NCBI GenBank assembly: GCA_964016885.1 | Contig: OZ024756.1 | Span: 36,146,001 to 36,210,000 of the forward strand | Direction: 5' to 3' | Length of the DNA stretch: 64,000 nucleotides | Origin: Eledone cirrhosa | Taxonomy: Eukaryota | Made by a program: the position numbers and the translations under genes | The notes under the pieces: generated by a model | The model's input: only the letters and a program-made list of their open reading frames with translations | Told to the model about the DNA's origin: nothing | Database searches by the model: none | In this document: positions 5,551 to 60,623 of the stretch, in pieces | How positions within the stretch are numbered: the stretch's first letter is position 1 | Layout of the letters: each line of letters opens with the position of its first letter

Positions 5551-5786
5551 AGACAGTAATCATGCCTCAGTGTTATTTCAATACTCCTCCTCCCAATCAT
5601 TAATATCATTATTGGTGGAAGTAGTAGTGTAGGTTGATATAACCTGTAGATATATTTACAGTTGCTGTAATGTCTGTATACTGTTTGTCTGTATACTGTT
5701 TGTCTATAAGCTGTATATATGTTGACATTGTAATGACTATTTGTCCAACACACTACGTCTAATGTCCCTCTCCTTTCATCTTTCAG

Positions 5787-8700
5787 ATTCTGCCTCTTCA
5801 TCCAGCAATGATTCTGATGCTGAAAAGGAGCCGATCCAACTGAGAGACATTCATGCTGACATTCGTCAATCATTTATTCGGGGAGATTCAACGCGACGGG
5901 CCGTCACTTACCGCAAGACATTATCAGCTCCATCAACTCCTCAGCAACAAACCAGACAGCTTGTGTCAGAGAAGAGCAAAACGCAGGAAGAACTTGGAAA
6001 CGAAAGTGACTCTGATAATTCAATAGATGACATGTTTGAAGACAACCAAGACCTTTATCAAATGAAAATTGTCAAATCAGCAGAATTTTCTCAACCATTT
6101 GACTTAGACACTTTCCAACTGATGTCAAAGTCCGATGGTTTTCTTGTGGCGTCTTCAACAGCAGACAACGACACTCGTAGGAATCTCACAGAACAGAGCA
6201 TGAACAAAAGTCTAATGGCACCTTCTTTTATTCAATGGAAGGATGGGCAAACAGAATCATCACAGCATAGTGGCCATGTTTTAAACACGGGTCAACGACA
6301 AGCTTATTACTCTCGCTTCCATGACTATGCAGAAATTGATGAAAGTCAAATTTCAGCCCCAGAAAGTGTGGTAGAAAGAACAAAAGAATATGCTCTGAAG
6401 AAACAAGAAAAGGAAGAAAAAGATCTTGATTCTGGTTCCAAGTCTGAGAAGAAACATGACCAAGCTGAAGAAGTGCCTGTTTCTAAAGACTCTTCCCCGG
6501 AAAGCACTACTCAACTACGATCAGATTTACTTTCAGCAATAGCAAAACTCGAGGATAGCATCTCACCTATAAGCTACATGCAGAAAGATATGAGCAAGTG
6601 TTTGAGTGTGCCATCAGATATTGGAAAATCACTGGAAAATGTCAATTTTGGTAGCCAGTCGGACTTGATGTCTGGCGTTAGCATCAGTGAACTCTCACAA
6701 TCTGTGGACAGTATCTCAGTAAATGATAGCACAGACTTCAATTTGAGTTGTACTTTTGCTGCAAATCCTTCTCTTTGTCCAGATTCTGCTACTGCGATAG
6801 ACCTCTGCAAACAAATTAATAAAGCCTTTTCTAACCCTAACAAAACCACAAGAGACTCTCCTGAAAAAGGAATCCGAAAGTCCACCTCTGACATCCCTAA
6901 CTCGGTTGAAGGAGATAAGGAGCCGTCGAAAATGGTGAGATTCAAGCAAGGCAGTAATTCTTTGGATGAACGTCAATCTAGTATTCCACCTAAAGGTGAG
7001 GGTGACCAAGCAGGTTTTGATAAAAAAATTGGTCAGCTGAGCCATGTGAGTCAGTTGAGTTCATCTGTCAGCGACAACTGTGTGAGGAGAGAAAGGAAAT
7101 CAAATGTTGCACCCACCAAACGATACTCACACCATATCATGGAACATCCAAAACCAGAAAGTGTGAACCCTCTCTTTATTGTTGAAAGTCCCCCTAGTCT
7201 AGAGAGCCTGAACAGCTTCACCCAAATGTTAAAGTTCTACGATCCTGAAGAAGTGAAACATATGATGGCTGAATCTTCTGGCTATTGGTCGCGACATTCT
7301 CACACAACTTCTGCAAACAACCAGACCGTTTCTAGTCCAACATCAGGTACAACACCGTTTGGTAAAACTGACCAGCTTCTACCTCTTGAAAGTGATACAG
7401 TGATGGGGGAATCAAAAGAGCATACACCGGTCAACAGTCCAATTACAGTCTGCAAAAGTCCACCTGTTGGAAGCTCTAAAGACTTAGATTTATCAGACAA
7501 CAGCATCAAGGGAAGTAACTCTTCCTTGCAAAGAACTTTGGAAGGAAATTCTATGGAAGATTTCTCCACTGAAACTTTGAAGCAACTTGATGACACAATG
7601 GAGAGTGACATCATGGTTCGATCTTTACCGCCGGAATCATCCCTCACTGATTCATTACTGAAACCTAAAACACTCCAATCCGTTTCTGGATCATTCAAGG
7701 ATAAAACACAAAGTGAAATCAATCTGAGGTGTTCCTCGCGGAAGCTTTCACCAGACGCTGGCAACAACCAAACTGATGCCGCATCAGATCCGATTCATTC
7801 TTCGGAGACACCATCAGTGAAAAGATGGGAAAGTATGGAAGTGAATCCCTCTCTGGATTCTGTTCTAGTTGTATCTCCGAGGTCCATTATCACTGCTCCA
7901 CGTCATGACTCTGAGTCAACTGTTCCCAGTTTTGATTCCAACAAAGATAGTTGCGACCAATTGTCTGTCAAAGATTCCAGCGAGACTCTTATTTCGTCTC
8001 CACACTCACCAATAAGCCTGAAGAACATCTATGGTGGCAGTCGGCCTCCTCAGTCATCTATTGCAGATTTAGACACCATCATGAACATGTCAAAGGAAGA
8101 ATTGGAGAGTGCTGAAAAGATGATATTATCAGCTGGAGGAGGAGACAATGAACTAGAACAGCAGCAGAGCGGTACTAGTCATCAAATTCCTTTAGCCAGT
8201 CCTGAAGTGTCCGGAATCAGTGACCAATCTGAACAAGATCAATCGAGTGAAGAGAGAAACTTAAATTCTCAAACTGATTCACAACAGCGACACTGTAATG
8301 ACAGAGAGATGTCAAAAGAATTGGGTCCACTGAAAAAGTCCTCAACAGTTCCTGCACTGGGACAGTCCCAGAAAGGAGGTATGGCTGATAATAAAGGGTC
8401 TGAGAACAAGCCGTTAAGTCAGCCGAGCTCACCCATTAAAAGTCCTAGCCACAAAGAGGGAATAGAGAAACTTCGGCGTTCATTCATTGCTGACCGGAAG
8501 GAGTTTGTCAACCAGAATTCCCAATCACCCCAGAAAGAAAAAGAGGAATCTGAGGTTAGTTTGAGTCCTAAAGACAGAAATGTGTGTAAAGGGTCAGAGA
8601 AAAATGGGGACAAGGAGACTGTCAGTAAAGAAACAGCCAAGACAGAGAACAATAAAGACATTTCTGAAGTAACTAAATCGAAAGACCCTAAGACTAACAG

Positions 8701-11599
8701 TAAAGACACAGCCAAATCAGGAGATCCTAGGACTAATAATAGAGATACAGCCAAATCAGGAGACTCTAAGGCTAATAATAAAGACACAACCAAATCAGGA
8801 GACCCTAGGACTAATAGTAAAGATACAACCAAATCAGGAGATCCTAAGGCTAATAATAAAGACACAGCAAAGTCAGGAGACTCTAAGTCTAATAGTAAAG
8901 ACACGTCGAAGTCAGTAGACCCTAGGACTAATAGTAAAGACACTGCCAAGTCAGGAGATTCTAGGACTAATAGTAAAGACACAGCCAAGTCAGGAGACCC
9001 TAGGACTAATAGTAAAGATACAGCCAAATCAGGAGACTCAAGGAGTAATAGTAAAGATACAACCAAATCAGTGGACAGTAAAACTAACAGTAAAGATATG
9101 GCCAGGTCTGGAGACCTTAAGACTAACAGTAAAGACACAACCAAAACAAAAGATAAGAGACTATCTGAAACAAATAAATCAGGGGAGAGTAAGGCAGTTG
9201 GTAAAACTACAGCCAAATCAAGTGACAGTAAAACTGGTACTAAAGGGGACAAAACTGTGGCTAAGGAAATGACAAAAGGAAGTGACAATAAAACTGTGGC
9301 TAAGGAAATGACCAAAGGAAGTGACAATAAAACTGTTGCTAAGGAAATGACCAAAGGAAGTGACAATAAAACTGTTGCTAAGGAAATGACCAAAGCAAAT
9401 GATAGTAAAACTGTTGCGAAGGAAATGACCAAAGGAAGTGACAGTAAAACTGTGGCTAAAGAGATGACCAAGTTAAATAAAAAAGAAACGAACCAGAAAA
9501 CGTCAAGTGACCATCGGAAAACTACATCTGGGGGCCAGAAAGAAGAGAAGAACCAGTCACTTGGAAAAGAGTTTGAATCTTTAAGTAATCCGCCCTGTCA
9601 GATTTCACCCCCTGAAGAAGATGTCCTTATTCAGATCCGTCCCACACTGAAAAGGTCCTCTTCCCCAAGGAGAAAGTTGATCGAGAAGATGAAAAAAGAC
9701 ACTCAAACTCCTCGTGATGTAAAAAGGCCAAGTGTGACTGAAGAAACTATTTCAGCCACAAATATGGTCCCAGCTGCTTGTGGGAGAAGTTGCAGACCAC
9801 AGCACAACACAACATCCCAACAGATTCCACAGTCAACGGCAGGCTTAAACTACCCATGTGATGACGACGATGATGTTGATGGTGATGATGGTGATGGTGA
9901 TGATGGTGATGATGGTGATGATGATGATGATGATGATGATGATGGTGATGAGAATGATGATGATGGTGGTGGTGGTGGTACAGAATATTCAAAGGCTCGC
10001 TCTCTCGACAGTTTGCTGTCCAACTTAAAGACAAAACCTAAAACAGAAAGCTCGAGCCAAAGAAATTATGCATTTCGGTGTAATATGACCTCCAGCAGCT
10101 CCGATGTTCTTCGAGGTCAGAGTAAGACTTCGATGGGGACAGCAACATCGTCCGATCTTGAAGTGATTCATGACCCTGAGGTGATCGACAGTGTGTTTCT
10201 AGACAACTTTACTGTCGATGTGCGACAACGGAAGGAATCAAGAGCAGGCAAGAAATGTGCAACAAATATTGCAAAGAACGTCGTTGACAGCAGCAGTAAC
10301 AGGTCGTCATTGGATGAATCTGTTCTGCAGGTCGCTGCTGAAAGACATACTGCATTTGAGGCTGCTAAAGATGGGTGCAACACTCAGCAATACAACACTG
10401 CATCTCTCAGATATCCTAAAGCAAAGAAATTACAAAACTTGAAAGAATTCTTCGAGCATGAAGAGATGAAGAACAGACCAAACTATAATCGATCTGGTAG
10501 CAGCCCTTCAAACTCACCGACATGTCCACGATACCAAAGACAGTATAGAGAAGCTGGTAAGAAAAGGGAGTCCAGCAGAAAAGACTCAATGTCTCCTTCA
10601 CGTTCTCGTGAACGCGAAGCTGCAAAATCTACCAACAAATCATCCAAAACTGATGCCAACAATCATGGACGTAGCCCAACCCCGAGTGCTCACAGCCCAA
10701 CTCCTAGTGCTCATAGTCCGACCCCTAGCAGTCGAAGCACAACCCCAGGTGGTCGAAGCCCGACTCCAAGTGGTCGAAGTCCAACACCAAGTGGCCGCAA
10801 GCCAGCTGCCTTAGAGAAATGGCAGCGTGCTGAATCGCACGAACGTGATGGCAAGCAGGGATGGGAGATGGGCGTTGATTATGTGCTCTGTAAATCTCCC
10901 AAATCTAAATCAGAACATTCAACAAGTTGCACGACCCCAAAGGGCACTGCTTACCGCATGCGTACTGGCAGTGAGTCATCAACAAGTGATGTGGACGTGA
11001 AGAGTCCACCACCACAACGTGCTCGAGACAAACAAAGGAAGGCTGTACGTAGTGCCGAGCAAAGTAAGAGTGATACCAGTGATTCAGAATCTAAACATTC
11101 ATTTTCAGAAATGGAGAGTATCGGTGAGGAACAAGTTCCTCGCCGAAAGCGTAAAGATAGCATTAAGGAGCTACGGAATTACTTTGAGGGCAAACAGACC
11201 ACAACAACTGAACTAAGTGCTGTTAGTAGTGGCAATAATAGTGGTAGTGGTAGTAATATTACTCCTAACACTTCAGTTTTTACTGCAAGCTGTTCGGAGC
11301 TGAGCAGCCATAGTGCAAGTACTGAAAAAACAGATCCAATGTGTTATATGAGTAAATCGTTAACGTGTGAACCAACAGGTGTTGTTGTCCCAAGGAGGGC
11401 AGCTAGATCTAGGGTCAAGAGTCTATCTCCTGTGTGTGGACAAAGTGATTTAAAATCAGACGATGAATTGTCACATAAAGGAAGTAGTCGTTTTAGTCTA
11501 GACTTTAGTGGTTATACCACTCGACCTCATGTCGAGGGCATTGTTCGACCACAGCCAGTAAGGCTTGGTCCTAAACCATTCTATGGGGCCAAAACTTGA
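5787..11599 (+). CDS. Giant terminal coding exon (~1937 codons) of an unidentified Ser/Lys/Asp-rich, probably disordered protein; upstream exons not located
   Basis: Stop-free frame of ~5.8 kb. Polypyrimidine tract and AG acceptor ctcctttcatctttcag|AT at 5786/5787 (phase 1). Ends ...PQPVRLGPKPFYGAKT-TGA. The TTG start in the ORF track lies upstream of this acceptor. Confidence 0.85.
8680..9470 (+). repeat. Two coding 39-bp (13-aa) tandem arrays: ~12x SKDTAKSGDPRTN-like, then ~6x KTVAKEMTKGSDN-like
   Basis: Visible in both DNA and translation of the giant exon. Confidence 0.9.
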
Positions 11600-18835: not shown

Positions 18836-18957
18836 AAGGTAAACAGAAATAACAACACGATCAGTACAGTATATGGAAGGGATATATTAGGTTAACGCTT
18901 GATATAGCAGGAAGAGGGTCTTCACGTTTCGCTAGTCCTTCATCAGAAGAAAGAATC
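18836..18957 (-). mobile_element. Degenerate copy of the hammerhead-bearing element family (stem II partly deleted, GUG at the cleavage triplet)
   Basis: Reverse complement closely matches ~21800-21925. Confidence 0.65.
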
Positions 18958-19874
18958 ATCATTTTATTTTACGTCTGAATTTTCCCTGCTTGCAAGGGTG
19001 GGACGGGAACTGATTCTGGATTGATTTCTACAGCTGGATGCCCTTCCTAACACCAACCTCATTTACAGTGAGTGCTGGGTGCTTTTTTTTGCCATGGCAC
19101 CTCCACGAACACTTTGCAGTGGAATGCTAGGGACCCCAGTCCCTATCATCTCATTTCTACAGCTGAGTAAACTGGAGCCATGTGAAATAAAGTATCTTGC
19201 TCAAGGAAACAACACATCACCCGGTCTGAGAATTGAACTCACAATCTTTTGATTGCAAGGTACAACATTTGTGACTTGTTATTTCATCTATATATAGATG
19301 AAATAATAAGTCACAAATGTCGGACCTGTGAACAGTCAATTTAATCAATTCCAGTGCTCCATGATTATCATATACAGTGCAGTCTCACAGTACCAGTGCC
19401 CCATTTCATGAGTAATTTGCTGTATGAGCTGAGGCTGGAACTGATTATTCATATTAATCTCAATGGGGGGAATTGACTTGTAAAATCAGTAAATCGTAAA
19501 ACGAGCTCGGTCATGGAGCAAATTAAACTTGTACTGCAAGGTATCACTCTATATCTGTAGCAATATTTAAAATAAATCGTTTGTGGAGTAGGAGTTCTAA
19601 CTTAAGAGCAACCATTGCTAATGTATCTCTGGCCTCTCTGCGTGTGTACATGAAACGAACGTAGAAATGAAGAATTAATTTTATAATTTTTTTTCTAATA
19701 TGTATATATATATATATATACACACACACATATATATATACATGCATATATAAAGGGAGTGAGAAGGGGCTATATATATATGGAGCAGGGAGAGGTTATA
19801 TACACACACACACATATATATATATATATATGGAATGGGGAGATTGAAAAGTTATTGACCTAAGAGTCAATATT

Positions 19875-19984: not shown

Positions 19985-22001
19985 CTGAAAAAGAAAAAAA
20001 ATTACCCGAATAAGTGGACATCAGAGCAGAGTTAAAATATGTGAACATGTTAACTTCTATTAAAATATGTGAACATGTTAACTTCTATTAAAATATGTGA
20101 ATATGTTAACTGCTTTAAAATATGTGAACATGTTAACTGCTTTAAAATATGTGAATATTAACTACTTTAAAATGTGTGAACATGTTGACTTCTTTTAAAA
20201 TGTGTGAACATTCCAAAATCCTGGGCTTCTCCAAGCTAATCTGATCAAAATTATTATTTTTTTAATTTTCTCATTAATTGACAGAAATGTTTATTCTCGT
20301 GTTTCACTCACAAAGTTGGCTTAAAAACCATTGATAATTACATAGACATGAAAAAGAGAGATACCAAACAAAATGAATGAGAAAGGGGTGAAGGGGTAAA
20401 GAAGGGCAGATCTGGCTGTATGGGAAAGTAAAGGAAAGGACTATAAATGAGAGGGAAAATCAAGGACTGTTGGGTCACAGAAGGGGAGCAGGTGATGGGT
20501 TCTGAGCCTACGAATGGGCAGTATTTGGGCTGCACCTCATGGACAATGGCCAGCGACACCTGCTGCAACAGCTACCACACCTCGCGGAGATCCTTCCACA
20601 GACGGGCCACTGATGTTCATATTTGGCAGAGGAGCTCGACAGTACAGGGTCCGAGGACGCCTGAGGTCTCAACAGGGACCAGTGTGAAGAGGAAGTGGCT
20701 GGATAATCTCCGGAATTTGTTTGTCTTCCTGTTCTCTGCATTGCGGACTGCAGTACCAGGGGCTTGTGGCCAAAGTGACTAAGTTGGAGGTGGAGAATGT
20801 GTCACAACATGTGGCATCCTTCAAATGGGAAGAGGGTAATTCCGTTGGAATGCTTGCTGTCTCTATGGTCAAGGTCTGTGTGCTCCAGTTGTGATGGGAA
20901 GCCAGCTGCATCCAGGCTCCTTCTCAATATGCCGTTGAGAGAGGGGGTATGTCGGGGGGAAGTGGCCTGCGCTCTGGTGACATGATAGTGGGTACAGCCA
21001 AACTTATAAATGACAGCCCCACAATGGCATTTGTGTAGCTCACACATGTGGAGGCCAAGTGCACTCATCATTAACAGGGCACCGAATTGAGCCACGCACC
21101 GCTGTTTAGCTGCGAAGTGGAAAATGTCACCTTGATTGTATTTTTAGCAGGTGTTTATTTTTTGCATTTTTTTACAAAAAAAAACATGTAAAACCAGTCT
21201 GGGGTGGTAGAGAACAAAAAAAAAAAAAAAAAGAAAACCTCTATGACACTGAAAGGGTTAATGGGTTGTGGCCTAGATGTTGAAGTGATTGAGTGATAGA
21301 AAGTGAAAAAGTGAGAGAGAGTGAGGGAAGAAGGATCAATGTAAGTAACTTACTCTCCAAAGATATCATTCTGGAACCAGTTCCTTTATTGTTGGAAGCT
21401 TTACATTCGTAATTGCCATAATCATTTTCCTGTACGCTTTTAATGACTAATTTACTGGTGACACGATTGAATGCTCCTGAGATGAACACTATTTTGTACC
21501 TGTTAAATAGAATACATACTATACACTGTTTTGTACCTGTTACATATAGAACACGTACTATACACTGTTTTAAATGAAGTTTTATTGAAAAGACTTCTAC
21601 CACACTATGACAGAAAAGAAAACTACAAACTCTATACCATAGAGTTGAAGGTGTGTACGACTCTCTACCACAATCTTCTTACACCACCTTCTTCTCACCC
21701 GTCCATTTTTCACTCCCACCCTAGTACCTTCAAAATGCCCAATCTCAAATCTTTTCTCCAATTCCAACCCACCCGTCCCCTCAATCTATCTTATTTCGCA
21801 TTCTTTCTTCTGATGAAGGACTAGTGTCAGAAACGTTAAGACCCTCTTCCTGCTATATCAAGCGTTAACCTAATATATCCCTTCCATATACTGTACTGAT
21901 TGTGTTGTTATTTCTGTTTACTTTATATATATATATATATATGTGATGATGATATATATATATATATGTGATGATGATATATATATATATAGGTGATGAT
22001 G

Positions 22002-22115: not shown

Positions 22116-25100
22116 AACTCTACACCATTTGCTGGATAGTATATCTCTGTTGTACTCTGCGAATGAGACTGTGAAAATGTTGCCATGGAGAACAGCCAGT
22201 GATACAAATTCCCTCAATGTAGTTCTTAGGGAGATTCAGCAAGACACAATGTATGAAAAGGCTGGCCTTTTGAATTAAAAGAATAACTCATTTTCAGAAC
22301 TGAGTGAACTGGATGAAATAAAGTGTTTTTCTCAAAGACACACTGCACTGACTGGAATCAAACAGACTATCCATTAAGCTATGCAGAGGAGCTTCACTAC
22401 TCAACCACACAGCTTTACTCAATGAAGGGGAATATGAAATAAATCTTGTGATTCGATTTTCTGTAGCAGCTGATGACCACATTTTTCTATCCCTAATGGT
22501 ATTTTACCCAGTTTTCTAAAGTTATAGCAATCTAAAATATAATTGTGATCCTTTCACTCTTCTGTAGATAAAGATGCCTGCTGTTCAGCTTATACAATGT
22601 TCTGTGAAAACAATACCTCTAATCTTGTTATTGACATAATATATAATTCTTGTAGATATTTGCAGACATCAAAATAAGCTACTTGAAAATAACATCTATC
22701 GTTTCTTATCAAATGCATGTGTGTGTTGATTTATAGTTATTTCTGTTTGGATTTCAACGTTTTAAATTGGAATATAACAGTGGTGCTATTAAGTTAGACA
22801 TGGCCTGGGCCAATACTGGCCAAAACCTATCAAAGTTATATGTATGGTTGGTTTGGGGCAAGCATAAGGCAGATATTGAAAATAATAAGTAACACCACAT
22901 ATAAATACCTGTCAGATTTCATGTCAATAGGATTTCCAATCCTGGCCCAGCTAATTTTGTCTTTGGCAACATCAGGATAAGCTTCAATGAAACAGACTAG
23001 CTCTGTTTGGTAACCTGGAGCCTGGGCTACAACTGAGGCCTCAACATTCATTTGGGGAGGAACTAACAACAAAAAAAATAATATAATGATAAAGATGTTA
23101 TTTCATGAGTCACATGGTCAGGGTAGGGTTAGAGTTGCGAGATCGGGGGTGGAAGGTTTCACGGCTAGCTGGTGAACAGTCATGTGGACAGTTGTGCAGG
23201 GCTGGGTGGTTGTGCAGCCAAAGGTGGACGGTTGTGTGGCCAGGTCAAGATGGTCGTATGGCTGGCTAGCCCATTTGATACCAAACCACCTGAAAGCACT
23301 CCTGGTTTTATGATACAGAACTATGCTTTAACACTTTAGCATTTACATTACTCTATATAAACTATTATATTTTCACACTAAACATTTTATCTTACCTAAT
23401 CATCTCACATAATATCGAATCTACGGGATTTTGATATTATTTATTTTGAGAACAATACTTTAACATAAGTATGTGTGGCCTGTTACAGAAAGAGGTGAAA
23501 GAATTCTGGCCGGATAGGGCCGGTTTAAATGCTAAAGGGTTAATGTTTATTTTTATCTAAAACCTTCCATCATAATTTTATGTAAGAACCTTTCTTAAGT
23601 TATGCTTCAAACACCAGCTCAGCTTAATAAGAAAGTTAGTTATATTACTAAATCCTTCCAAATTCTCGATTATTAAAAATCATAGTACTGTATAGTGGTC
23701 ATGTAGGAGTCATGGAAAAAAGCACCCAGTCCACAGTGTAATCTGGTAGTGTAGGTGTCATGACAAAAAGCAACAACCCTGTAAATGTGGTTGGTGTTAG
23801 GAAGGGCATCCAGCTGTAGAAATCTTGCCAGAAAGTTCTATATGAGCAAGACATGGTCACCTGACCCAACTTTCCTCAAATGGGACAAGCCGTCTAACCC
23901 TTGCTAGCATGGAAAATGGTCATTAAACGATGATGATGATGATGTATGTGTGTGAATATCCTGACCTAATCATGACCGTATATCTGTCAAACTTGTCCCA
24001 TTGATAGGCATGAATGCCACAACACCAATGGACAAAACTTACCACTTAATGAAATCTTCAGTCTATTTATCATATATTAATATCTGCAGCAATACATAAA
24101 ATACATCGTTTGAAACAGTTCTATATGAGCAAGACACAGTTGCCTAACCCAACTTGCTTCAAATGTGATGACTTGTCTAACTCATGCTAGCGTGGAAAGT
24201 GGACATTAAACGATGATGACAATGATAATTATAGGCAGTGGCTTTCATTTGAAATATGGTAATGCGAGGGTTAAATGAGGGAAAGAAAAATTTTTAAAAG
24301 CAAAATATACTCACATCGTACAAAAACTGAAATAACTCTCTTGTCAATACCAGCTTCATTAAAGGCTCGGCAAATGTATTTGCCTCGATCACTAGGTTTA
24401 ATTTTTAAAATCGGCATTAGAGAATTCTGAGGAAAAAAAAAAAAAAGAAAATGTATTTACCTTGATCACTAGATTTAACTCTTTAGCATTTAAACCGGCC
24501 ATATCCAGCCAGAAATCTCTCACTTCTTTCTCTTCAAATCTGCCATAATTGGCTGCTCATATTTATGTTAAGGTATTCTTCTCAAAATAAATAATATCAA
24601 AATCTCATAAATTCGATATTATGTGAAGTAAAGCCTTTACCATTAAAATATAATATATAGAGTATTATAAATGCTAAAGGGTTAATTTTTAAAATCGGCA
24701 TTATAGAGGGAAAAAAAAAACAAAAAAAAAAGACCAGAAATCATTTGTACTGTAAGATAGATCAGATAAATTTGTCTTATATAGTCAATGATCTTTGGCC
24801 ATGTTGGAGTATCATCTATAAAGATTTAGCAGATTGTATCAACTCCACTAGAGGCGGCAAATTGGCAGAGTCATTACAGTGTCGGATAGAATGCTTTATG
24901 GAATTCGTTGCGGCTCTCTGAGTTCTGGATAGGTAGATAGCGCTGATTGCTAACAACATGACTCAACACTGCTGAAAACTCATACCCTCACAACTGACTA
25001 AGTTCAAATATGTGTGATATATGTGGCAGTGCTTCTGTCATTATTGTATGCACCCAGTCCACTCTGTAAAAATGATTGGCAAGGGCATCAAACTGTAGAA

Positions 25101-28100
25101 ACAATGTCAAAAGTGGAATATATGATAAAGATATTATCTGACAATGCCTTCTTAGCCTGAACCATAATAATTGTTTCTACTTTTGGCACAAGGCCAGCAA
25201 TTACCCAGTACATTACTGGTACTTTATTTTATCGACCCCTCCGTATGGATGAAAGGGATGTAACTATGCTGGAAAGCATGTCCGACCCTCTACTGATACT
25301 GCCCTTATAAAAACTGAAAAGGTTTACTGGGAACCCTACTCCCGACCAGGATTGAACTTCAGACCGTGATCACCACCATCTATGATTCTGCCAACTAGGC
25401 CGCCAAGACAGCTACTAGCCTGGACCATAATAATCAAGCCAACCTACGCCAGCATGGAAAACATAATAAAAAGTAATCAATTTAAGCAGTTACCCATCTT
25501 TCCATTCCACCATCAGGTAAATCAGCACCAGCCATTCTTGACCAGCTGATCCTTGGGTTTGGTATTCCCTGGGCATTACAGGACAGAATCAGTTTCTCCT
25601 CCACATCTATACTAGTGTCACTGCTAGTACTCATGTCAATAATTTGGGGAAGTTCTGCAAAGAGAAAATATTATTATATTTTTTGAGAAAATATTATTAT
25701 ATTCATTGGAGCGTCGAATGAGTTGAAAAATTCAACAATGTCAAATACAAGAAATAACTGTGAACACAGTCGACTGATATCAATAACAGCTAAGAAGACC
25801 AGTTAAAATACCCCTAGTGACAGAAAAAAGTATTTTACCTGATATATTCATTTCATCATTTCATTTCATTTTACGCCCGCTTTTTCCCTGCTTGCAAGGG
25901 TGGGACGGGAACTGATTCTGGCTTGATTTCTACAGCTGGATGCCCTTCCTAACACCAACCTCATTTCCAGTGAGTGCTGGGTGCTTTTTTGCCGTGGCAC
26001 CTCCACGACCACTTTGCAGTGGAATGATAGGGACCCCAGTCCCTATCATCTCATTTCTACAGCTGAGTAAACTGGAGCAATGTGAAATAAAGTGTCTTGC
26101 TCAAGGAAACAACACATCACCCGGTCTGAGAATTGAACTCACAACCTTTCGATTGCAAGGCCAATGCTCTAACCACTAAGCCATGTGCCTCCATATATAT
26201 ATATATAGCAATCAACTGTGTTCAGTTATTTCCTGTGTTTGAGATTGTTGACATTTTCTAAGCACTTCAACTTAAATGTGTGTACATCTGTATATGTGTG
26301 TGTGTGTGTGTGTGTACATATGTGTGTCTGTATGCACATCTGTATGTGTCTGTGTTCATCTGTATGTGTGTCTATCTGTAAATCTGTCTGTGTGCACATC
26401 TGTATGTATGTATTCTGTCTGTGTGTACATCTGAACGTCTGTCAGTGTGTGTGTGTATCTGTGTGTGTGTGTGAGTGTATCTGTGTGTGTGTGTGTATCT
26501 GTGTGTATCTGTGTTTGTGTTTGTGTGAGTGTATCTGTGTGTATGTGTGTAGCTGTGTTTGTGTTTGTGTGTGTGTATGTGTGTATCTGTGTTTGTGTGT
26601 GTGTATGTGTGTGTATCTGTGTTTGTGTTTGTGTGAGTGTATCTGTCTGTGTGTGTGTATCTGTGTTTGTGTTTGTGTGAGTGTATCTGTTTGTCTGTGT
26701 ATCTGTGTTTGTGAGTGTGTGTGTGTGTATCTGTGTGTATGTGTGTATCTGTGTGTGTATCTGTGTTTGTGTATTTGTGTATTTGTGCTTGTATGTACGA
26801 GTGTGTTTGTGTGAGTGTATCTGTGTGTGTGTGTGTGTGTATGTGTGTATCTATATGTTTGTGTGTGTGTATCAGTGCTTGGGTGTGTGTGTATCTGTGC
26901 TTGTGTGTGTGTATATGTTTGTGACATACAACAGTGACATCAACTCACCGATAACATTGACAATACGGAAGTCCTCACTGTACTGTTTCTCATCAATCTG
27001 TACGCTACATATATACTTCCCTTTGTCACTGGCCTGGACATTTTGGATGGTCAGACGCCATGACACTGAGGTTATTTGGACAATGATATATTTCTGGGGG
27101 TTAGTAGAACTAGTATCAGTACCAACATCGTGTTTCACGTCCTCATTAATATGGCTCCATTTTACCTGTCAAACAACAACAAATTTCATTAGACTGATGA
27201 TGATGATGATGATGATAGTGTTGAAGATGTTGATGGTGTTGGTGATGATGATGAATTTGATGATAATGGTGCTGAAGATGATGATGGTGATGGTGGTGAT
27301 GCTGATGCTGAAGATGATGATGATGATGATGATGATTAATTTGATGATAATAGTGCTGAAGATGATGGTGTTGATGATGATGAGTGTTGATGATGCTGAT
27401 GATGAAGATGAAGATAATAGTGATGAAGGTGGTGATGAGGTTGATTGTGTTGACGATGTAACTTATGTAATATATCCAAACCATCCACCTAAATCCATAC
27501 CACCCACTTATGATGAGTCATACCACCCACCCAGCCACCTATGACGAGTCATACCACCCACCCAGCCACCTATGACGAGTCACACCACCCACATGAGACA
27601 TGTCATACCACCCACCTATGACGAGTCATACCACCCACATGAGACATGTCATACCACCCACCTATGACGAGTCATACCACCCACATGAGACATGTCATAC
27701 CACCCACCCACCCACCTTTATAAGGAGAATGGAAAGATTGGGAATTGTAAAGATTTAGAAAGAGGTAGGTTGGGAGGAGCAGAGACTACTGTAGTAGTAG
27801 TTGTAGGAGCTTAACGAGAGGACACAGTTCTCAAAGAACTATTTTAACTAAAGATGATGGCGTGTGAAGATTTATCTATCAATTTTTTTTTTTACCGGCA
27901 TATCTTCCTCCTTGTTTATTACAACACACACCATTGACACATCATCATTCTTCATAGCCGTGATCTCTTTATCTTCGAAAATATCTTCGGGTTCGGTGAT
28001 TGATATAGACGGATCAACAGAAATAACTGAAAAAAAAAAAAAAAATGAAAAATTACTGAAAGTCGAGGAATATGTGATCCAAACATTGTTAGTAAAATCT

Positions 28101-30320
28101 ACATTCCTCTGAATTTCTTGTTCAAATTTTGATAAATAAATCTTGTATTGTTCAACATGAAGCCTAGCATTTACATTACTCAATATTTACTATTGTACTT
28201 TTACAGTAAACACTTTATTTCACATAATTATCTTTACGGTCTGAGTTCAAATCCTGTTGAGGCTAACTTTGCCTTTCATCCTTACGGGGTGGATATAAAA
28301 TAAAGTACCAGTAATGTACTGGGATAATTGCTGGCCTTGCGCCAAAAGTAGAAACAATTATTTATTTGGAAAACAATATCTTAACATCAGTATGAGCAGC
28401 CAATTATGTCCAGTTTGAACAGAAAGAGATGAGAGAATTCTGGCCGGATATGGCCGGTTTAAGTGCTAAAGGTTTAATTTTGTTTGCTTCGGATTGTAGT
28501 TACCCAGATATTTACATCTCAAATGATATCAATTTTGTTCCATGTATGGACATAAATATATAATATATCAGCTCTCTTCTCGATTGAGCACTATTTTCCC
28601 TTTCCTACCTATGGATATTTTCACTTACGTGTGTGTGTGTATATATATGTGTGTATGTATTCAAAGTAGGGGCCGCACAGGGCAAAAAGCGAAAAGAGAC
28701 AGTCTGATCTCATCAGTCAACCTCTGGAAAGTACTACAGTTTCGTAAAATTAAGGTCAATACCATTTATTCTAGTGCACATTAAGACATAAAAATGTGTG
28801 TGTTTTCATGCATTTCTTTAATTACAATCATTTAATCAAAACATCCAATACATCAGATTGGATTATTTTACTTTAATATAGAGAAAAACATTTAATATTA
28901 CTTTATTCAGTTGTACAAATTGCTCCCACTTCTTTCAGAATGAAAATATAAACCCATATTATTGTTTCTACTTTTGGCACAATGCCAGCAATTTTCCCAG
29001 TGCATTACTGGTACTTTATTTTATCGACCCCGTAAAGATGAAAGTTGACCTCGGTGGAATTTGAGCTCTGAGAGCAGAGAGCTGGAACAAATTCCATAAA
29101 GCATTCTATCCGGTATTCTAACGACTCTGCCAATTCGCCACCTTAAACACATATAATAAATACAATTTAACTATTATGGACAGAGGTTGCCAACCAGTGT
29201 CCCGAGGATCTATGGTGGTCAGTGAACTGTTGTGCAACTAGGCAGACGTACCAAAAGCCTAGAGACACTGCCAGAATTCATTTAACCATTTTGTACCATA
29301 TGTTTAATGAACTACCTGTCCGTTACATATAATTTTGAAAATAATCAAGTTTGTAGGGATTTTGAAATATAATTTTCTCGTTATTTAACAAGTGTTTAAC
29401 ACATAAAATGTCTTATATAAAACTATGATGGAAAGGTTTAGATAAACATAAACAACTTTGATCATAGAAACTAAGAGCGGTTTTCAGGAGAGGTGATATA
29501 GAAAAGTATGGAGTCGTTGGTTCGTGAAATATGATTTAATAAAGCGGGTCTTTCGTAGAGAAAAATAATTGGAATCAATGACTAGACTCAGAGATTAACC
29601 ACCACTAACAAAAGAAAAAGGTAAAATAAGATATATATATATAACTGAAAATACTTGAAAGCGCTAAAAGCTGATGAGAAAGCCATTTGAAGTCCTAAAT
29701 TCCCTTAAAGCACCTGTTACATCAAGGTTTATTCTGACGTAAAATGTAAATAGAAACACCCAACATTTCCTATTGAGTGTGCAGGACTGTTTTTTCTTTC
29801 TCTCCGATTAATGTCTATCAATTTGTCTCTTTTCTACTTATTGTTAATTAAAAAAAAAAAACTATTTTCGAAGAAAGGTTATTCACGTTATTTTTCTCTC
29901 GGATTTTAAATCAAATTTATTACCATCTATATTTTCATTAAGGTGTCTACGACACGTACAACAATCTTCAGGGTTATTTATAAGACAATCGGGGATCATT
30001 TAGCTTTCAAACTTCGTTCTTGTTTTGAACTGACCTGAGAAGTTATCATTTCCTACCAAAAACTTTTCATTTTACATACAAATACAAAATATGTGTATAT
30101 ATATATGTGTGTGTGTGTATATATATATATAAAGGTGTGTGTTTTTATTTTTACCTTCCAAATGAAACAACTAAACGGTATAAACAAACAGAATAAACCA
30201 AAGGTGAGAATAGTTGACCAGGTGAGAATAGCATGTAGCTACAGTGAAGAAATACGCACCTGGACAGAATGTAACGTAGTAGAGCAGTAAAATATAGGTC
30301 AACACAGGTAGTTTCTCCAT
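19875..30320 (-). CDS. Lachesin/IgLON-like GPI-anchored cell adhesion protein, 363 aa, 8 coding exons
   Basis: Exons 30320-30260, 28026-27896, 27165-26949, 25654-25494, 24426-24315, 23062-22909, 21499-21354, 19984-19875. All introns GT-AG with compatible phases; total 1092 nt. Signal peptide [20 protein letters not shown]; three Ig domains (DKGKYIC, DRGKYIC, DYGNYEC); hydrophobic C-terminus [22 protein letters not shown]. Confidence 0.9.
20470..21125 (-). mobile_element. Degenerate CRE-clade non-LTR retrotransposon 3' fragment (zinc knuckle and restriction-like endonuclease)
   Basis: Frameshifted translation [54 protein letters not shown] fits my recollection of CRE-type RLE motifs. Confidence 0.7.
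21354..21499 (-). CDS. Lachesin-like exon 7 (Ig3 C-half)
   Basis: YKIVF...[24 protein letters not shown]; donor GTAAGT. Confidence 0.92.
21806..21841 (+). ncRNA. Minimal hammerhead motif, family shared with 32667-32702 and 18919-18950
   Basis: tctt-CTGATGA-aggactagtgtca-GAAA-cg-TT-aaga; palindromic AACGTT stem III. Confidence 0.6.
22909..23062 (-). CDS. Lachesin-like exon 6 (Ig3 N-half)
   Basis: [29 protein letters not shown]...ISW; canonical splice sites. Confidence 0.92.
24315..24426 (-). CDS. Lachesin-like exon 5 (Ig2 C-half)
   Basis: [26 protein letters not shown]; canonical splice sites. Confidence 0.92.
24479..24681. mobile_element. piggyBac-type MITE inserted at TTAA within a duplicated exon fragment
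   Basis: TTAA on both sides; the empty site is present at 24398-24401. Confidence 0.88.
25494..25654 (-). CDS. Lachesin-like exon 4 (Ig2 N-half)
   Basis: [12 protein letters not shown]...[19 protein letters not shown]; canonical splice sites. Confidence 0.92.
26949..27165 (-). CDS. Lachesin-like exon 3 (Ig1 C-half)
   Basis: VKWSH...[20 protein letters not shown]; cag acceptor, GTGAG donor. Confidence 0.92.
27896..28026 (-). CDS. Lachesin-like exon 2 (Ig1 N-half)
   Basis: Poly-T acceptor; [13 protein letters not shown]...[15 protein letters not shown]; donor GTAAA. Confidence 0.88.
30260..30320 (-). CDS. Lachesin-like exon 1 (signal peptide)
   Basis: ATG at 30320; [20 protein letters not shown]; donor G|GTGCGT, phase 1. 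Confidence 0.8.
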
Positions 30321-32502: not shown

Positions 32503-32666
32503 AACCCATAGAGCAATATTTATTATTAGTACAGATTAAAGTTTAAGCAATGAATTTCTGCTTTCATTGTAAGTGTGATCATCTGAAACTCATATATATA
32601 TATATGTGTGTGTGTGTATATATATATATACATAACTTTTTATTTCATCTTTTATTTATAATTCTA

Positions 32667-32702
32667 TCTTCTGATGAAGGACTCGTATCTGAAATGTAAA
32701 GA
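32667..32702 (+). ncRNA. Minimal hammerhead motif (same family)
   Basis: tctt-CTGATGA-aggactcgtatct-GAAA-tg-TA-aaga, followed by the same tail (ctatatcaagcgttaa). Confidence 0.55.
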
Positions 32703-33144
32703 CACTTTCCTACTATATCAAGCGTTAAACTAATATGTTTCTTCATTACACCGTGTTGTTTGTGTCCTGATTTCAAATCCTTCTTAGGTCAGTCTTGACT
32801 TTCATCATTTTGGAATTGATAAATAAAGTACCAGCCAAGTACCGATGATTGATCTAATCACTTCCAACCAATCACTAATACCACCAGTGTTAGTTGTAGT
32901 TGTTGTGTTTTCAACCAGAGGTTTATTTTGATTGAGCTGTCTTATGATCAAAGCCATAACTACCTGGGGTTTTTTTATGGACATGATATATCTAGGACTA
33001 CATCATTAAATGTGTCTGGTTTTGTAAGGAAGATTTAACAGCATGTCAACTGAACTATTAGAACAGGTATGGGAAACCTTTTTCGAGCAGGGGCCTGCAT
33101 AGGATGTTGCTCATCATGAGGTGGGCTACACTACTAAAAAAAGG

Positions 33145-36100
33145 ACATTGTCTTGTCCTACACAGTATGTAGTGTCATATATTACACTGTCTTGTCCTAT
33201 AGATACAGTGTGTAGTGTGTTGGATAGGGCACTCAGTCTTGCCCTATAGATATGGTGTGCAATGTGATATAGTACACTGTTGTCCTATACAGTGTGTAGT
33301 GTGATATATTACACTGTCTTGTCCTATACAGTATGTAGTGTGATATATTACACTGTTGTCCTATACAGTGTGTAGTGTGATATATTATACTGTTGTCCTA
33401 TACAGTGTGTAGTGTGATATATTACACTGTTGTCCTATACAGTGTGTAGTGTGATATATTATACTGTTGTCCTATACAGTGTGTAGTGTGATATATTATA
33501 CTGTTGTCCTATACAGTGTGTAGTGTGATATATTACACTGTTGTCCTATACAGTGTGTAGTGTGATATATTATACTGTTGTCCTATACAGTGTGTAGTGT
33601 GATATATTACACTGTTGTCCTATACAGTGTGTAGTGTGATATATTACACTGTTGTCCTATACAGTGTGTAGTGTGATATATTACACTGTTGTCCTATACA
33701 GTGTGTAGTGTGATATATTACACTGTCTTGTCCTATACAGTGTGTAGTGTGATATATTACACTGTTGTCCTATACAGTATGTAGTGTGATATATTACACT
33801 GTCTTGTCCTATACAGTATGTAGTGTGATATATTACACTGTTGTCCTATACAGTATGTAGTGTGATATATTACACTGTCTTGTCCTATACAGTATGTAGT
33901 GTGATATATTACACTGTTGTCCTATACAGTGTATAGTGTGATATATTACACTGTTGTTCTATACAGTGTGTAGTGTGATATATTACACTGTCTTGTCCTA
34001 TACAGTATGTAGTGTGATATATTACACTCTTGTCCTATACAGTATATAGTGTGATATATTACACTGTCTTGTCCTATACAGTGTGTAGTGTGATATATTA
34101 CACTGTTGTCCTATACAGTATGTAGTGTGATATATTACACTGTTGTCCTATACAGTATGTAGTGTGATATATTACACTGTTGTCCTATACAGTATGTAGT
34201 GTGATATATTATACTGTTGTCCTATACAGTATGTAGTGTGATATATTACACTGTTGTCCTATACAGTGTGTAGTGTGATATATTACACTGTTGTCCTATA
34301 CAGTATGTAGTGTGATATATTACACTGTTGTCCTATACAGTGTGTAGTGTGATATATTACACTGTTGTCCTATACAGTGTGTAGTGTGATATATTACACT
34401 GTTGTCCTATACAGTGCGTAGTGTGATATATTACACTGTTGTCCTATACAGTATGTAGTGTGATATATTACACTGTTGTCCTATACAGTATGTAGTGTGA
34501 TATATTACACTGTTGTCCTATACAGTATGTAGTGTGATATATTACACTGTTGTCCTATACAGTATGTAGTGTGATATATTATACTGTTGTCCTATACAGT
34601 GTGTAGTGTGATATATTACACTGTTGTCCTATACAGTGTGTAGTGTGATATATTACACTGTTGTCCTATACAGTATGTAGCATGATATATTACACTGTTG
34701 TCCTATACAGTATGTAGTGTGATATATTACACTGTTGTCCTATACAGTGTATAGTGTGATATATTACACTGTTGTTCTATACAGTGTGTAGTGTGATATA
34801 TTACACTGTCTTGTCCTATACAGTATGTAGTGTGATATATTACACTCTTGTCCTATACAGTATATAGTGTGATATATTACACTGTCTTGTCCTATACAGT
34901 GTGTAGTGTGATATATTACACTGTTGTCCTATACAGTATGTAGTGTGATATATTACACTGTTGTCCTATACAGTATGTAGTGTGATATATTACACTGTTG
35001 TCCTATACAGTATGTAGTGTGATATATTATACTGTTGTCCTATACAGTATGTAGTGTGATATATTACACTGTTGTCCTATACAGTGTGTAGTGTGATATA
35101 TTACACTGTTGTCCTATACAGTATGTAGTGTGATATATTACACTGTTGTCCTATACAGTGTGTAGTGTGATATATTACACTGTTGTCCTATACAGTGTGT
35201 AGTGTGATATATTACACTGTTGTCCTATACAGTGCGTAGTGTGATATATTACACTGTTGTCCTATACAGTATGTAGTGTGATATATTACACTGTTGTCCT
35301 ATACAGTATGTAGTGTGATATATTACACTGTTGTCCTATACAGTATGTAGTGTGATATATTACACTGTTGTCCTATACAGTATGTAGTGTGATATATTAT
35401 ACTGTTGTCCTATACAGTGTGTAGTGTGATATATTACACTGTTGTCCTATACAGTGTGTAGTGTGATATATTACACTGTTGTCCTATACAGTATGTAGCG
35501 TGATATATTACACTGTTGTCCTATACAGTATGTAGTGTGATATATTACACTGTTGTCCTAACCAGTGCCTAGTGTGTTATATTACACTCTTGTCCTATAG
35601 AACCAGTGTGTAGTGTGTTATATTACACTCTTGTCCTAACCAGCGCCTAGTGTGTTATATTACACTCTTGTCCTATAGAACCAGTGTGTAGTGTGTTATA
35701 TTACACTCTTGTCCTATAGAACCAGTGTGTAGTGTGTTATATTACACTCTTGTCCTATAGAACCAGTGTGTAATGTGTTATATTACACTCTTGTCCTATA
35801 GAACCAGTGTGTAGTGTGTTATATTACACTCTTGTCCTATAGAACCAGTGTGTAGTGTGTTATATTACACTCTTGTCCAAACCAGTGCCTAGTGTGTTAT
35901 ATTACACTCTTGTCCTATAGAACCAGTGTGTAGTGTATTATATTACACTCTTGTCCTATAGAACCAGTGTGTAGTGTGTTATATTACACTCTTGTCCTAT
36001 AGAACCAGTGTGTAGTGTATTATATTACACTCTTGTCCTAACCAGTGCCTAGTGTTTTATATTACACTCTTGTCCTATAGAACCAGTGTGTAGTGTGTTA

Positions 36101-36500
36101 TATTACACTCTTCTCCTATAGAACCAGTGTGTAGTGTATTATATTACACTCTTGTCCTAACCAGTGCCTAGTGTGTTATATTACACTCTTGTCCTATAGA
36201 ACCAGTGTGTAGTGTGTTATATTACACTCTTCTCCTATAGAACCAGTGTGTAGTGTGTTATATTACACTCTTGTCCTATAGAACCAGTGTGTAGTATGTT
36301 ATATTACACTCTTGTCCTATAGAACCAGTGTGTAGTGTGTTATATTACACTCTTGTCCTATAGAACCAGTGTGTAGTGTGTTATATTACACTCTTGTCCT
36401 ATAGAAGCAGTGTGTAGTGTGTTATATTACACTCTTGTCCTATACAGTGTGTAGTGTGATATATTACACTGTTGTCCTATAGAAGCAGTGAGTAGTGTGT
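33145..36500. repeat. 3.3-kb satellite: 37-39-bp unit switching to a 41-bp unit at ~35560
   Basis: Unit tgtagtgtgatatattacactgttgtcctatacagtg; later ccagtgtgtagtgtgttatattacactcttgtcctatagaa. Confidence 0.95.
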
Positions 36501-38305: not shown

Positions 38306-38629
38306 GTATATATATGTATATGTATGTATATGTATATATATAATGAGGTCGTGTAGGTGTCATGACAAAAAAAAACACACAGTCCACGCTGTAATGTGGC
38401 CGTGTAGGTAACACGGTAAAAACCTCCCAGTCCACACTGTAAACGTGGTTGGTGTTAGGAAGGGCATCCAGCCGTAGAAAACCCGCCAGACAGTCCTATA
38501 TGAGCAGGACAACCAATCTTGCCTCAAGTGGGAAACCTCCCGTCCAAACCCATGCAAGCGTGGAAGATGGACGTTAGACGATGATGATGATGATGATGAT
38601 ATGTATATATATATATATGTATATATATG

Positions 38630-38706
<77 letters not shown>

Positions 38707-38743
38707 GTATATATATATGTATATATATATATGTATATATATG

Positions 38744-38814
<71 letters not shown>

Positions 38815-38853
38815 ATATATATATGTATATATATATATGTATATATATATATG

Positions 38854-39014
<161 letters not shown>

Positions 39015-39090
39015 GAATATGTATATATATGATGATGATGATATGTATATGTATATATATATGTATATATATATATATATATCTATATGT

Positions 39091-39142
<52 letters not shown>

Positions 39143-39320
39143 GTATATATATATATAGATAGATAAATATACACGGGTGTGTATGATTGTGTATAGAAGA
39201 TTATATTAATTAAAGGAATTCCAACTTTGTCTGATTTACTCGTTTTATTTACAATCCTTTAAAATTATAATGGTATTAGAATGAAATAGTATGGTAGAAT
39301 ATTAAATGTTAAGTGTTAAT

Positions 39321-39359
39321 TGAACAAGTACTTTCATGCTTTCGCAATCTTCAGGTTCA
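39321..39359 (-). ncRNA. Identical minimal hammerhead motif on the opposite strand (inverted twin)
   Basis: Exact reverse complement of 39424-39462. Confidence 0.75.
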
Positions 39360-39423
39360 TAATGTGTGGTGACAATCAAGTTTCACAGTTTAAAATTGCA
39401 AACTTGACTGTCACCACAGAATA

Positions 39424-39462
39424 TGAACCTGAAGATTGCGAAAGCATGAAAGTACTTGTTCA
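39424..39462 (+). ncRNA. Minimal type-I hammerhead ribozyme motif (Penelope-like)
   Basis: tgaac-CTGAAGA-t-tgcGAAAgca-t-GAAA-gtac-TT-gttca: stem I tgaac/gttca, GNRA-capped stem II, palindromic stem III AAGTACTT. Confidence 0.75.
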
Positions 39463-39526
39463 ATTAACACTTAACATTTAATATTCTACCATACTATTTC
39501 ATTCTAATATCATTTAAAATTTTAAA

Positions 39527-39558
<32 letters not shown>

Positions 39559-39583
39559 GTATGTATATATATATATATGTATG

Positions 39584-39660
<77 letters not shown>

Positions 39661-39687
39661 GTATATATATGTATATGTATATATATG

Positions 39688-39834
<147 letters not shown>

Positions 39835-39849
39835 GTATATATATATGTA

Positions 39850-39905
<56 letters not shown>

Positions 39906-40221
39906 CATATATATATGTGTCTGTATGTGTGTATATATATATATACATATATTTATATGTGTGTGTATATATATATACATACCTACATTTTTTATATGGT
40001 ATTATTGAGGTCCAGCCCCTTTTCTCATTTGATTAATTCCCAAATACATACACAAAGACAGAATGTTTACTTCAGTACTTCAATGAATACACTCAGTCAT
40101 TCTACCAGAAAAACAAACACATCACCAACAACACTCATAAAATACATTAAATTAAATTAATTTAGATTTGTAAATATATTTAAACATGTTTTTAGTCTCA
40201 CTTTGAAAGAGATTTTTTTGT

Positions 40222-40227
40222 TTTATT
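40222..40227 (-). terminator. Candidate poly(A) signal of the peroxidase-like gene
   Basis: AATAAA on - ~0.7 kb after the stop; an alternative distal AATAAA lies near 37592. Confidence 0.35.

Positions 40228-40900: not shown

Positions 40901-60623
<19,723 letters not shown>

Follow-up and report, generated by a model that had tools for sequence, protein, structure and literature searches.

Our analysis of a 64,000-nucleotide stretch of the Eledone cirrhosa genome (hereafter the window) revealed at 39167-39530 a head-to-head pair of 5'-truncated copies of one repeat family, each with the same minimal hammerhead ribozyme motif. The pair is most likely the pseudo-LTR (pLTR) end of a Penelope-like element (PLE) left by a single insertion into (TA)n, and the locus is likely silent; we assign this reading a probability of about 0.85. 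The relevant features are as follows (coordinates in the window, strand, description).

38601..39166, no strand: left (TA)n-rich microsatellite, likely insertion target, read from the sequence
39167..39383, - (sense): left arm, a 5'-truncated repeat copy with a complete 3' end including the tail; summed depth is high from 39167 to ~39380 in 4 of 4 runs
39167..39201, -: optional 3' extension of 35 nt, a PLE-like "tail", bounded by two preferred ends that loose ends define
39244..39249, -: an AATAAA that belongs to the repeat and does not flank it
39321..39359, -: minimal type-I hammerhead motif, whose cleavage is predicted 3' of U17 (39326)
39384..39399, +: head-to-head junction, forming the hairpin loop; extra base 39384 plus 15 nt of additional right-arm 5' sequence
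39385..39530, + (sense): right arm, a 5'-truncated repeat copy, its 3' end 87 nt shorter than that of the left arm
39424..39462, +: minimal type-I hammerhead motif of 39 nt, predicted cut after 39457; stem I 39424-39428/39458-39462, core 39429-39435, U·U 39436/39447, stem II 39437-39439/39444-39446, GAAA 39448-39451, palindrome 39451-39456
39531..39980, no strand: right (TA)n-rich microsatellite, likely insertion target, read from the sequence
40901..41225, -: final coding exon of a gene for an animal haem peroxidase; the O. bimaculoides chorion peroxidase shares 62% identity over its C-terminal 107 aa

The arms at 39254-39383 and 39400-39530 are mutual reverse complements; across the 115 ungapped positions 39269-39383 they mismatch at 4, and there is a short indel near 39264-39268. 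The hairpin region has a minimum free energy of -191.1 kcal/mol (z -32), and none of 200 shuffled sequences folded equally well, which confirms the near-perfect inverted arms of ~130 bp reported in an earlier note on this DNA. The note had placed the unit at 39254-39530 between (TA)n blocks; (TA)n indeed lies on both sides, but the left boundary was wrong, as the element runs 87 nt further, to 39167. The 3' end of the right arm passes into (AT)n through a shared AT, and a target-site duplication, optional in PLEs, is unreadable inside the (TA)n flanks. The asymmetry of the arms, their differences at several sites and the 10-15 reads of the public run X13 that lie over the junction make an assembly fold-back artefact unlikely; none of the contigs listed spans the whole stretch.

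The arm belongs to a high-copy family. Parts of 39160-39530 were present in 12 public runs (9 organism codes, 8 studies), four of them containing at least half of its words and three containing small shares; no RNA run was among those listed, which is uninformative as to expression. Four of the 15 public runs listed (X1, X5, X6 and X13) were aligned to a one-arm reference (39165-39425). The contigs aligning to the arm numbered 2047 in X1 and 1647 in X5, and summed depth in X1 was 6.3-7.7e5 across the hammerhead and 6.9-8.7e5 across 39201-39245, while single-contig depth in this run was 11-30 for six of the eight contigs listed (3.2 and 60.9 for the remaining two). The family likely comprises copies of the order of 10^4, the summed depth itself being no copy number. 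Two preferred 3' ends delimit the tail: at 39202 loose ends enter (TA)n in 35, 29 and 3 contigs of X1, X5 and X6, respectively (all three runs with contigs), and at 39167 they enter (GA)n/(TA)n in 9 contigs of X1 and 101 reads of X13. Toward the 5' side the family depth declines in the public runs aligned to one arm. The loose ends behind 39383 and before 39385 are one family sequence on opposite strands; therefore, the family extends 5' beyond the loop, which merely consists of 15 more 5' bases of the right arm. Clusters of X13 molecule ends at 39217/20, 39266 and 39318/21 were rejected as biological ends, since they lie on AATT sites and were read as cuts of the RAD-seq enzyme.

The anatomy of the locus is that of EN+ PLE insertions. 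We found a hammerhead in a terminal repeat, dispersed 5'-truncated copies, a head-to-head inverted copy with a variable junction (at this locus, in 7 of the 15 weak joints listed, and in one contig), an optional 3' tail of 30-40 bp, and an AT-rich or microsatellite target at both 3' ends. In published descriptions, PLE insertions lack 5' sequence, frequently have a neighbouring inverted copy that is likewise 5'-truncated, carry at one end a tail of 30-40 bp and favour microsatellites (PMC8557442). Adineta Pen2a has an inverted pLTR with a 15-bp overlap and a 31-bp tail; head-to-head is given as the most frequent arrangement, and self-priming at junction palindromes has been proposed (PMC3846280). 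According to in vitro work, the tail is the stretch between two reverse transcriptase start sites, AT-rich DNA is nicked and extended on both of its strands by a protein that is a predicted dimer, and the hammerhead of that PLE cleaves only with the protein and is dispensable for insertion (PMC11167929). With EN+ insertions such as those of Adineta Pen2a and of the Penelope/Poseidon, Neptune and Hydra clades the locus shares 5' truncation, the head-to-head inverted pLTR, the optional 30-40 bp tail, the pLTR hammerhead, the AT-rich or (TA)n target and a weak junction palindrome. The palindrome, at 39384-39399, is imperfect (about -0.5 kcal/mol as a DNA fold and about -7 kcal/mol as a self-dimer). 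In contrast to these insertions, the locus has no ORF, and its arms differ at common family variants.

As no reverse transcriptase partner was found, the PLE assignment rests on anatomy, that is, on four structural features and the hammerhead. Among 90 of the 196 non-low-complexity ORFs (those starting at 24-54 kb of the window), Pfam search detected no reverse transcriptase or GIY-YIG domain, which fits the expectation for a stump. Neither arm holds an open PLE-like frame, and the 31-aa open end of the left arm had no matches in the protein search. With no ORF at the locus and no partner ORF found, the assignment is to PLEs in general and not to a clade. In O. vulgaris, 31 recently active Penelope-like families have been reported, in a paper whose main text does not mention hammerheads (PMC13282606).

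The first alternative, which we consider improbable, is a short non-autonomous, ORF-less hammerhead family of the SINE or retrozyme-like kind using Penelope machinery; the locus would be an inverted pair formed by the same mechanism from a different parent. The very high abundance in several organisms and the absence of an ORF after the hammerhead in the arm agree with it, and animal retrozymes have been argued to derive from pLTRs (bioRxiv 10.64898/2026.07.22.740005). With animal non-LTR retrozymes the locus shares the protein-free state, the type-I hammerhead, low GC content and the link to pLTRs. However, the 3' loose ends listed (a listing short of 272 loose-end rows) enter a microsatellite and no next unit, and the tail and the inversion are features of PLE insertions. 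Non-LTR retrozymes are defined by a head-to-tail tandem arrangement (PMC7229834). The locus has one motif per strand and no such tandem of same-strand hammerheads; hence, unlike animal non-LTR retrozymes, it has no pair of same-strand ribozymes to release a monomer or a circle. Of the earlier proposal of a protein-free Penelope-derived or retrozyme-like unit, the Penelope part is thus upheld by the tail, the (TA)n junctions, the 5' truncation and the head-to-head inversion, while the protein-free unit or retrozyme part is not supported, given these loose ends and a junction depth of ~1-2% of the arm depth.

The rarity of the centre bears on a second alternative, a MITE-like, self-propagating palindrome in which the whole 277-bp hairpin is copied in one piece. 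Depth collapses at 39382-39387: in X1 the junction depth is 2,444 at 39382-39383, ~1.4% of the adjacent inner-arm depth, and in X13 there are 10-15 junction reads against 708 at 39375, so that the centre is rare among family copies. Of the 18 joints, 15 are listed; five of these connect the inner right arm with the left arm at different points and two are internal opposite-strand joints, each of them weak evidence individually (sides of 21-48 nt, 80% likeness); the joints to 39425 (6 of the 15) touch the reference end and were excluded from the inversion count. In addition, one X1 contig crosses the centre with 15 nt fewer, and three listed skips inside the left arm are internal deletions (joint 39354 appears as both kinds). 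Inversions recur at varying points, and the weak joints agree on it. A near-perfect inverted repeat in a TA context would suit the MITE-like reading, and the X1 junction depth does exceed single-locus depth, so that similar centres may recur; however, against the low junction depth, the run of the family past both the loop and the former left "end", and the other inversions at different points, this reading is largely refuted. It is the arm that is repeated and mobile; the hairpin arose as a product of insertion and is not the amplified unit.

Under the PLE reading, the GIY-YIG endonuclease of an autonomous element would have nicked the AT-rich (TA)n target, and target-primed reverse transcription would have begun at the tail end and halted ~25-40 nt upstream of the ribozyme. 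During integration, the second arm, in inverted orientation, would have been made at the weak intrinsic palindrome, either by fold-back priming or by the joining of a second cDNA. The origin of inverted PLE ends has been named an open mechanistic question (PMC8557442).

The differences between the arms bear on this choice. Clean differences are found at 39273, 39362, 39364 and 39375. The right-arm letters at the first three positions are common family variants (19, 18.5 and 17% of X1 depth and 70, 63 and 61% in X5, respectively), as is a right-arm T insertion near 39264 (15% of X1 depth), with frequencies skewed by competition for reads between the two inner arms and a comparison limited to one locus. 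At 39375 the left-arm letter is private. Moreover, the arms start and stop at different points, the left one reaching further at the 3' end and the right one at the 5' end. These differences and the end asymmetry are poorly explained by a single fold-back with random mutation afterwards. A better fit would be two cDNAs copied from different family members, each primed separately on one of the nicked strands, and joined head-to-head, by analogy with LINE-1 twin priming and with the two-strand nicking of PMC11167929; we regard this origin as possible but less likely than not. Gene conversion, for which there are thousands of potential donors, could produce the same picture, as could mutational hotspots, assembly polishing or a deletion into (TA)n at a later time. 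Judging by titles and abstract openings, we found no published proposal of two-cDNA joining for PLEs. If true, it would mean that inverted PLE ends arise at least sometimes from two cDNAs and not by fold-back self-priming. A high-copy family with common subfamily variants could serve to test how inverted Penelope ends form.

The two hammerhead motifs, described earlier as identical and on opposite strands (39424-39462 + and 39359-39321 -), are indeed identical over 39 nt and point away from the hairpin centre. A minimal-hammerhead descriptor matched three places in the window (both arms and 32671), compared with an average of 0.04 when the window was locally shuffled 100 times. The core is intact, as had been stated: C3-U4-G5-A6-N7-G8-A9, G12-A13-A14, A15.1-U16.1 and H17 are all present. 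H17 is U, giving the cleavage site CUU, which the NUH rule permits (PMC3088659, PMC12192606). Stem II has only 3 bp and is closed by U10.1·U11.1, the G10.1-C11.1 pair being missing. The self-complementary stem III of the earlier note is present as a palindrome, but the proper stem is the 6-nt AGUACU and not the 8-nt AAGUACUU, which was rejected because core A14 would pair with U17 and mis-fold the core. In the monomer, the predicted energy of stems I and II is -5.0 kcal/mol, and closing A15.1-U16.1 brings it to +0.3; in the dimer formed through the palindrome, the active pairing has -15.4 kcal/mol, less favourable than the over-paired form with A14-U17 (-18.0), which is the minimum predicted. 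Overall, the motif is a credible, probably weak, dimer-dependent hammerhead.

Minimal hammerheads have been described in metazoan PLE pLTRs, with opposite-strand pairs 100-700 bp apart (PMC4209133, Cervera and de la Pena 2014) and low, dimer-dependent cleavage (PMC4209133). The present motif shares with them the CUGANGA/GAAA core, a stem I of 4-5 bp, a short palindromic stem III and the opposite-strand pairing; however, they have a long stem II, a highly conserved G10.1-C11.1 and an extra base after A9, whereas here stem II has 3 bp with U10.1·U11.1 and the cleavage site is CUU. Retention of U11.1 as part of an AUG start is unsupported, as the frame stops after 11 codons in both arms.

Conservation of the motif across family copies was assessed in the 40 rows listed out of 65. 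Among these, 39327-39360 is free of substitutions (permutation P 0.004 for the fixed interval, 0.15 for such a run anywhere), and substituted positions amount to 2 of 39 in the whole motif against 26 of 175 elsewhere (p=0.078). In X5, motif variants include U17 to A in 20% and insertions in loop II, both of which are tolerated by the hammerhead, while a change breaking the outermost pair of stem I (19%) weighs against conservation of the motif. One 4-nt loop II insertion in X5 (39339-39343; one contig, ~5% of depth) would add one G-C pair to stem II. Related families with a better-folding ribozyme may exist, as this insertion and A17 suggest.

The U10.1·U11.1 mismatch occurs in natural hammerheads of bacteria and phages (PMC3088659). 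An axolotl retrozyme family with U·U is also on record, its motifs cleaving weakly as monomers and better as dimers (PMC7229834). Both the axolotl retrozyme and the bacterial and phage hammerheads thus resemble the octopod motif in having U·U at the stem II base, but they are found in tandem repeats or as type-III forms with full stems, whereas the octopod copies are dispersed and inverted. The exact 27-nt motif had no matches in metagenome and viral contigs, and the degenerate motif including the palindrome had none in metagenome contigs. Scanning viral contigs with a degenerate motif (36 of 64 parts, giving 125 loci) yielded 96 distinct contexts of the same module; by script, flanking hammerhead stems are present in 85 of the 96, including all 58 with a 4-nt loop. 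Among 63 type-III viral calls, 58 have A at position 17, three have U and two have C; therefore, CUU is an unusual choice here. A 23-nt string of core plus stem II is identical between the octopod motif and the phage loci L043 and L112, an identity that probably arose by convergence. Beyond these two loci, CUGANGA-UUGC-loop-GCAU-GAAA with U10.1·U11.1 is a recurrent phage form (~90 contexts, mostly type III), and the phage modules often lie just upstream of a Shine-Dalgarno-like sequence and a start codon.

Rfam search of the octopod motif gave no hammerhead at gathering and none among the 14 matches at E<=10, mostly generic hairpin or miRNA models. This result is uninformative, because none of six tested phage modules with fully stemmed motifs attained Rfam gathering scores.

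Inside the full hairpin the predicted probability of stem I is below 1e-45 on either strand, so that the masking of the ribozyme by the antisense arm, suggested before, is backed by folding. Transcription through the locus in either direction produces the antisense arm before the ribozyme, and the RNA would form a ~130-bp duplex; the locus is therefore predicted to be silent, not regulated. The ribozyme would have been inherited from the parent element, where it may have cut RNA weakly as an AGUACU-mediated dimer; here read-through RNA would zip it into duplex, making the locus a likely silent dead end.

The adjacent gene encodes an animal haem peroxidase. Pfam PF03098 was detected in its upstream exons, and the exon at 44739-45209 is 75% identical to the Octopus bimaculoides protein and 71% to that of O. 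vulgaris. The stop codon lies at 40901-40903, and the element starts about 1.37 kb beyond it. The placement of the element between two candidate poly(A) signals holds for one of them only: the gene-strand AATAAA at 40227-40222 is outside the element, between it and the stop codon, but the other, at 39249, is inside the repeat. A co-opted regulator of the peroxidase 3' end, acting by ribozyme cut or as a dsRNA editing or silencing signal, would suit this distance on the gene strand and the sense orientation of the - strand hammerhead, but it is very improbable, given that AATAAA at 40227 precedes the element, that AATAAA at 39249 belongs to the repeat, that the ribozyme is masked in read-through RNA (by folding), and that hammerhead-like remnants are common locally, another family adding three to the window. 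The peroxidase 3' exon (40901-41225 -) ends in a Trp/Cys-rich stretch and then a Gln/Thr-rich tail, an arrangement common to the O. bimaculoides protein; the Trp/Cys-rich stretch, presumably thrombospondin-like, has no Pfam match. The next same-strand gene downstream of the peroxidase contains immunoglobulin I-set exons (24274-28186 -).

The single locus is of little weight, being one of many repeat remnants with an anatomy published since at least 2013-2014. The octopod family is of modest use, for its high copy number and its U·U stem II; we found no description of hammerhead-bearing repeats in octopods in the literature, where the supplements of papers may list cephalopod hammerheads.

A second dispersed repeat family has three copies in the window, at 18880-18990 (-), 21770-21880 (+) and 32630-32740 (+). 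They have a CUGAUGA...GAAA hammerhead-like core with a 4-bp stem I and a degenerate stem II, and only the copy at 32671 met the descriptor; these copies are likely remnants of another Penelope-like family. At 33609-35209 and about 36000-36500 there is a tandem repeat of ~37-41 nt with a small hairpin per unit, which gave three Rfam matches above gathering for Fusobacteriales-1, likely a chance minisatellite match. Finally, a 1957-codon open frame at 5726-11599 (+), rich in Ser, Lys, Thr and Asp and containing 13-aa and 14-aa tandem repeats, is apparently one very long exon.
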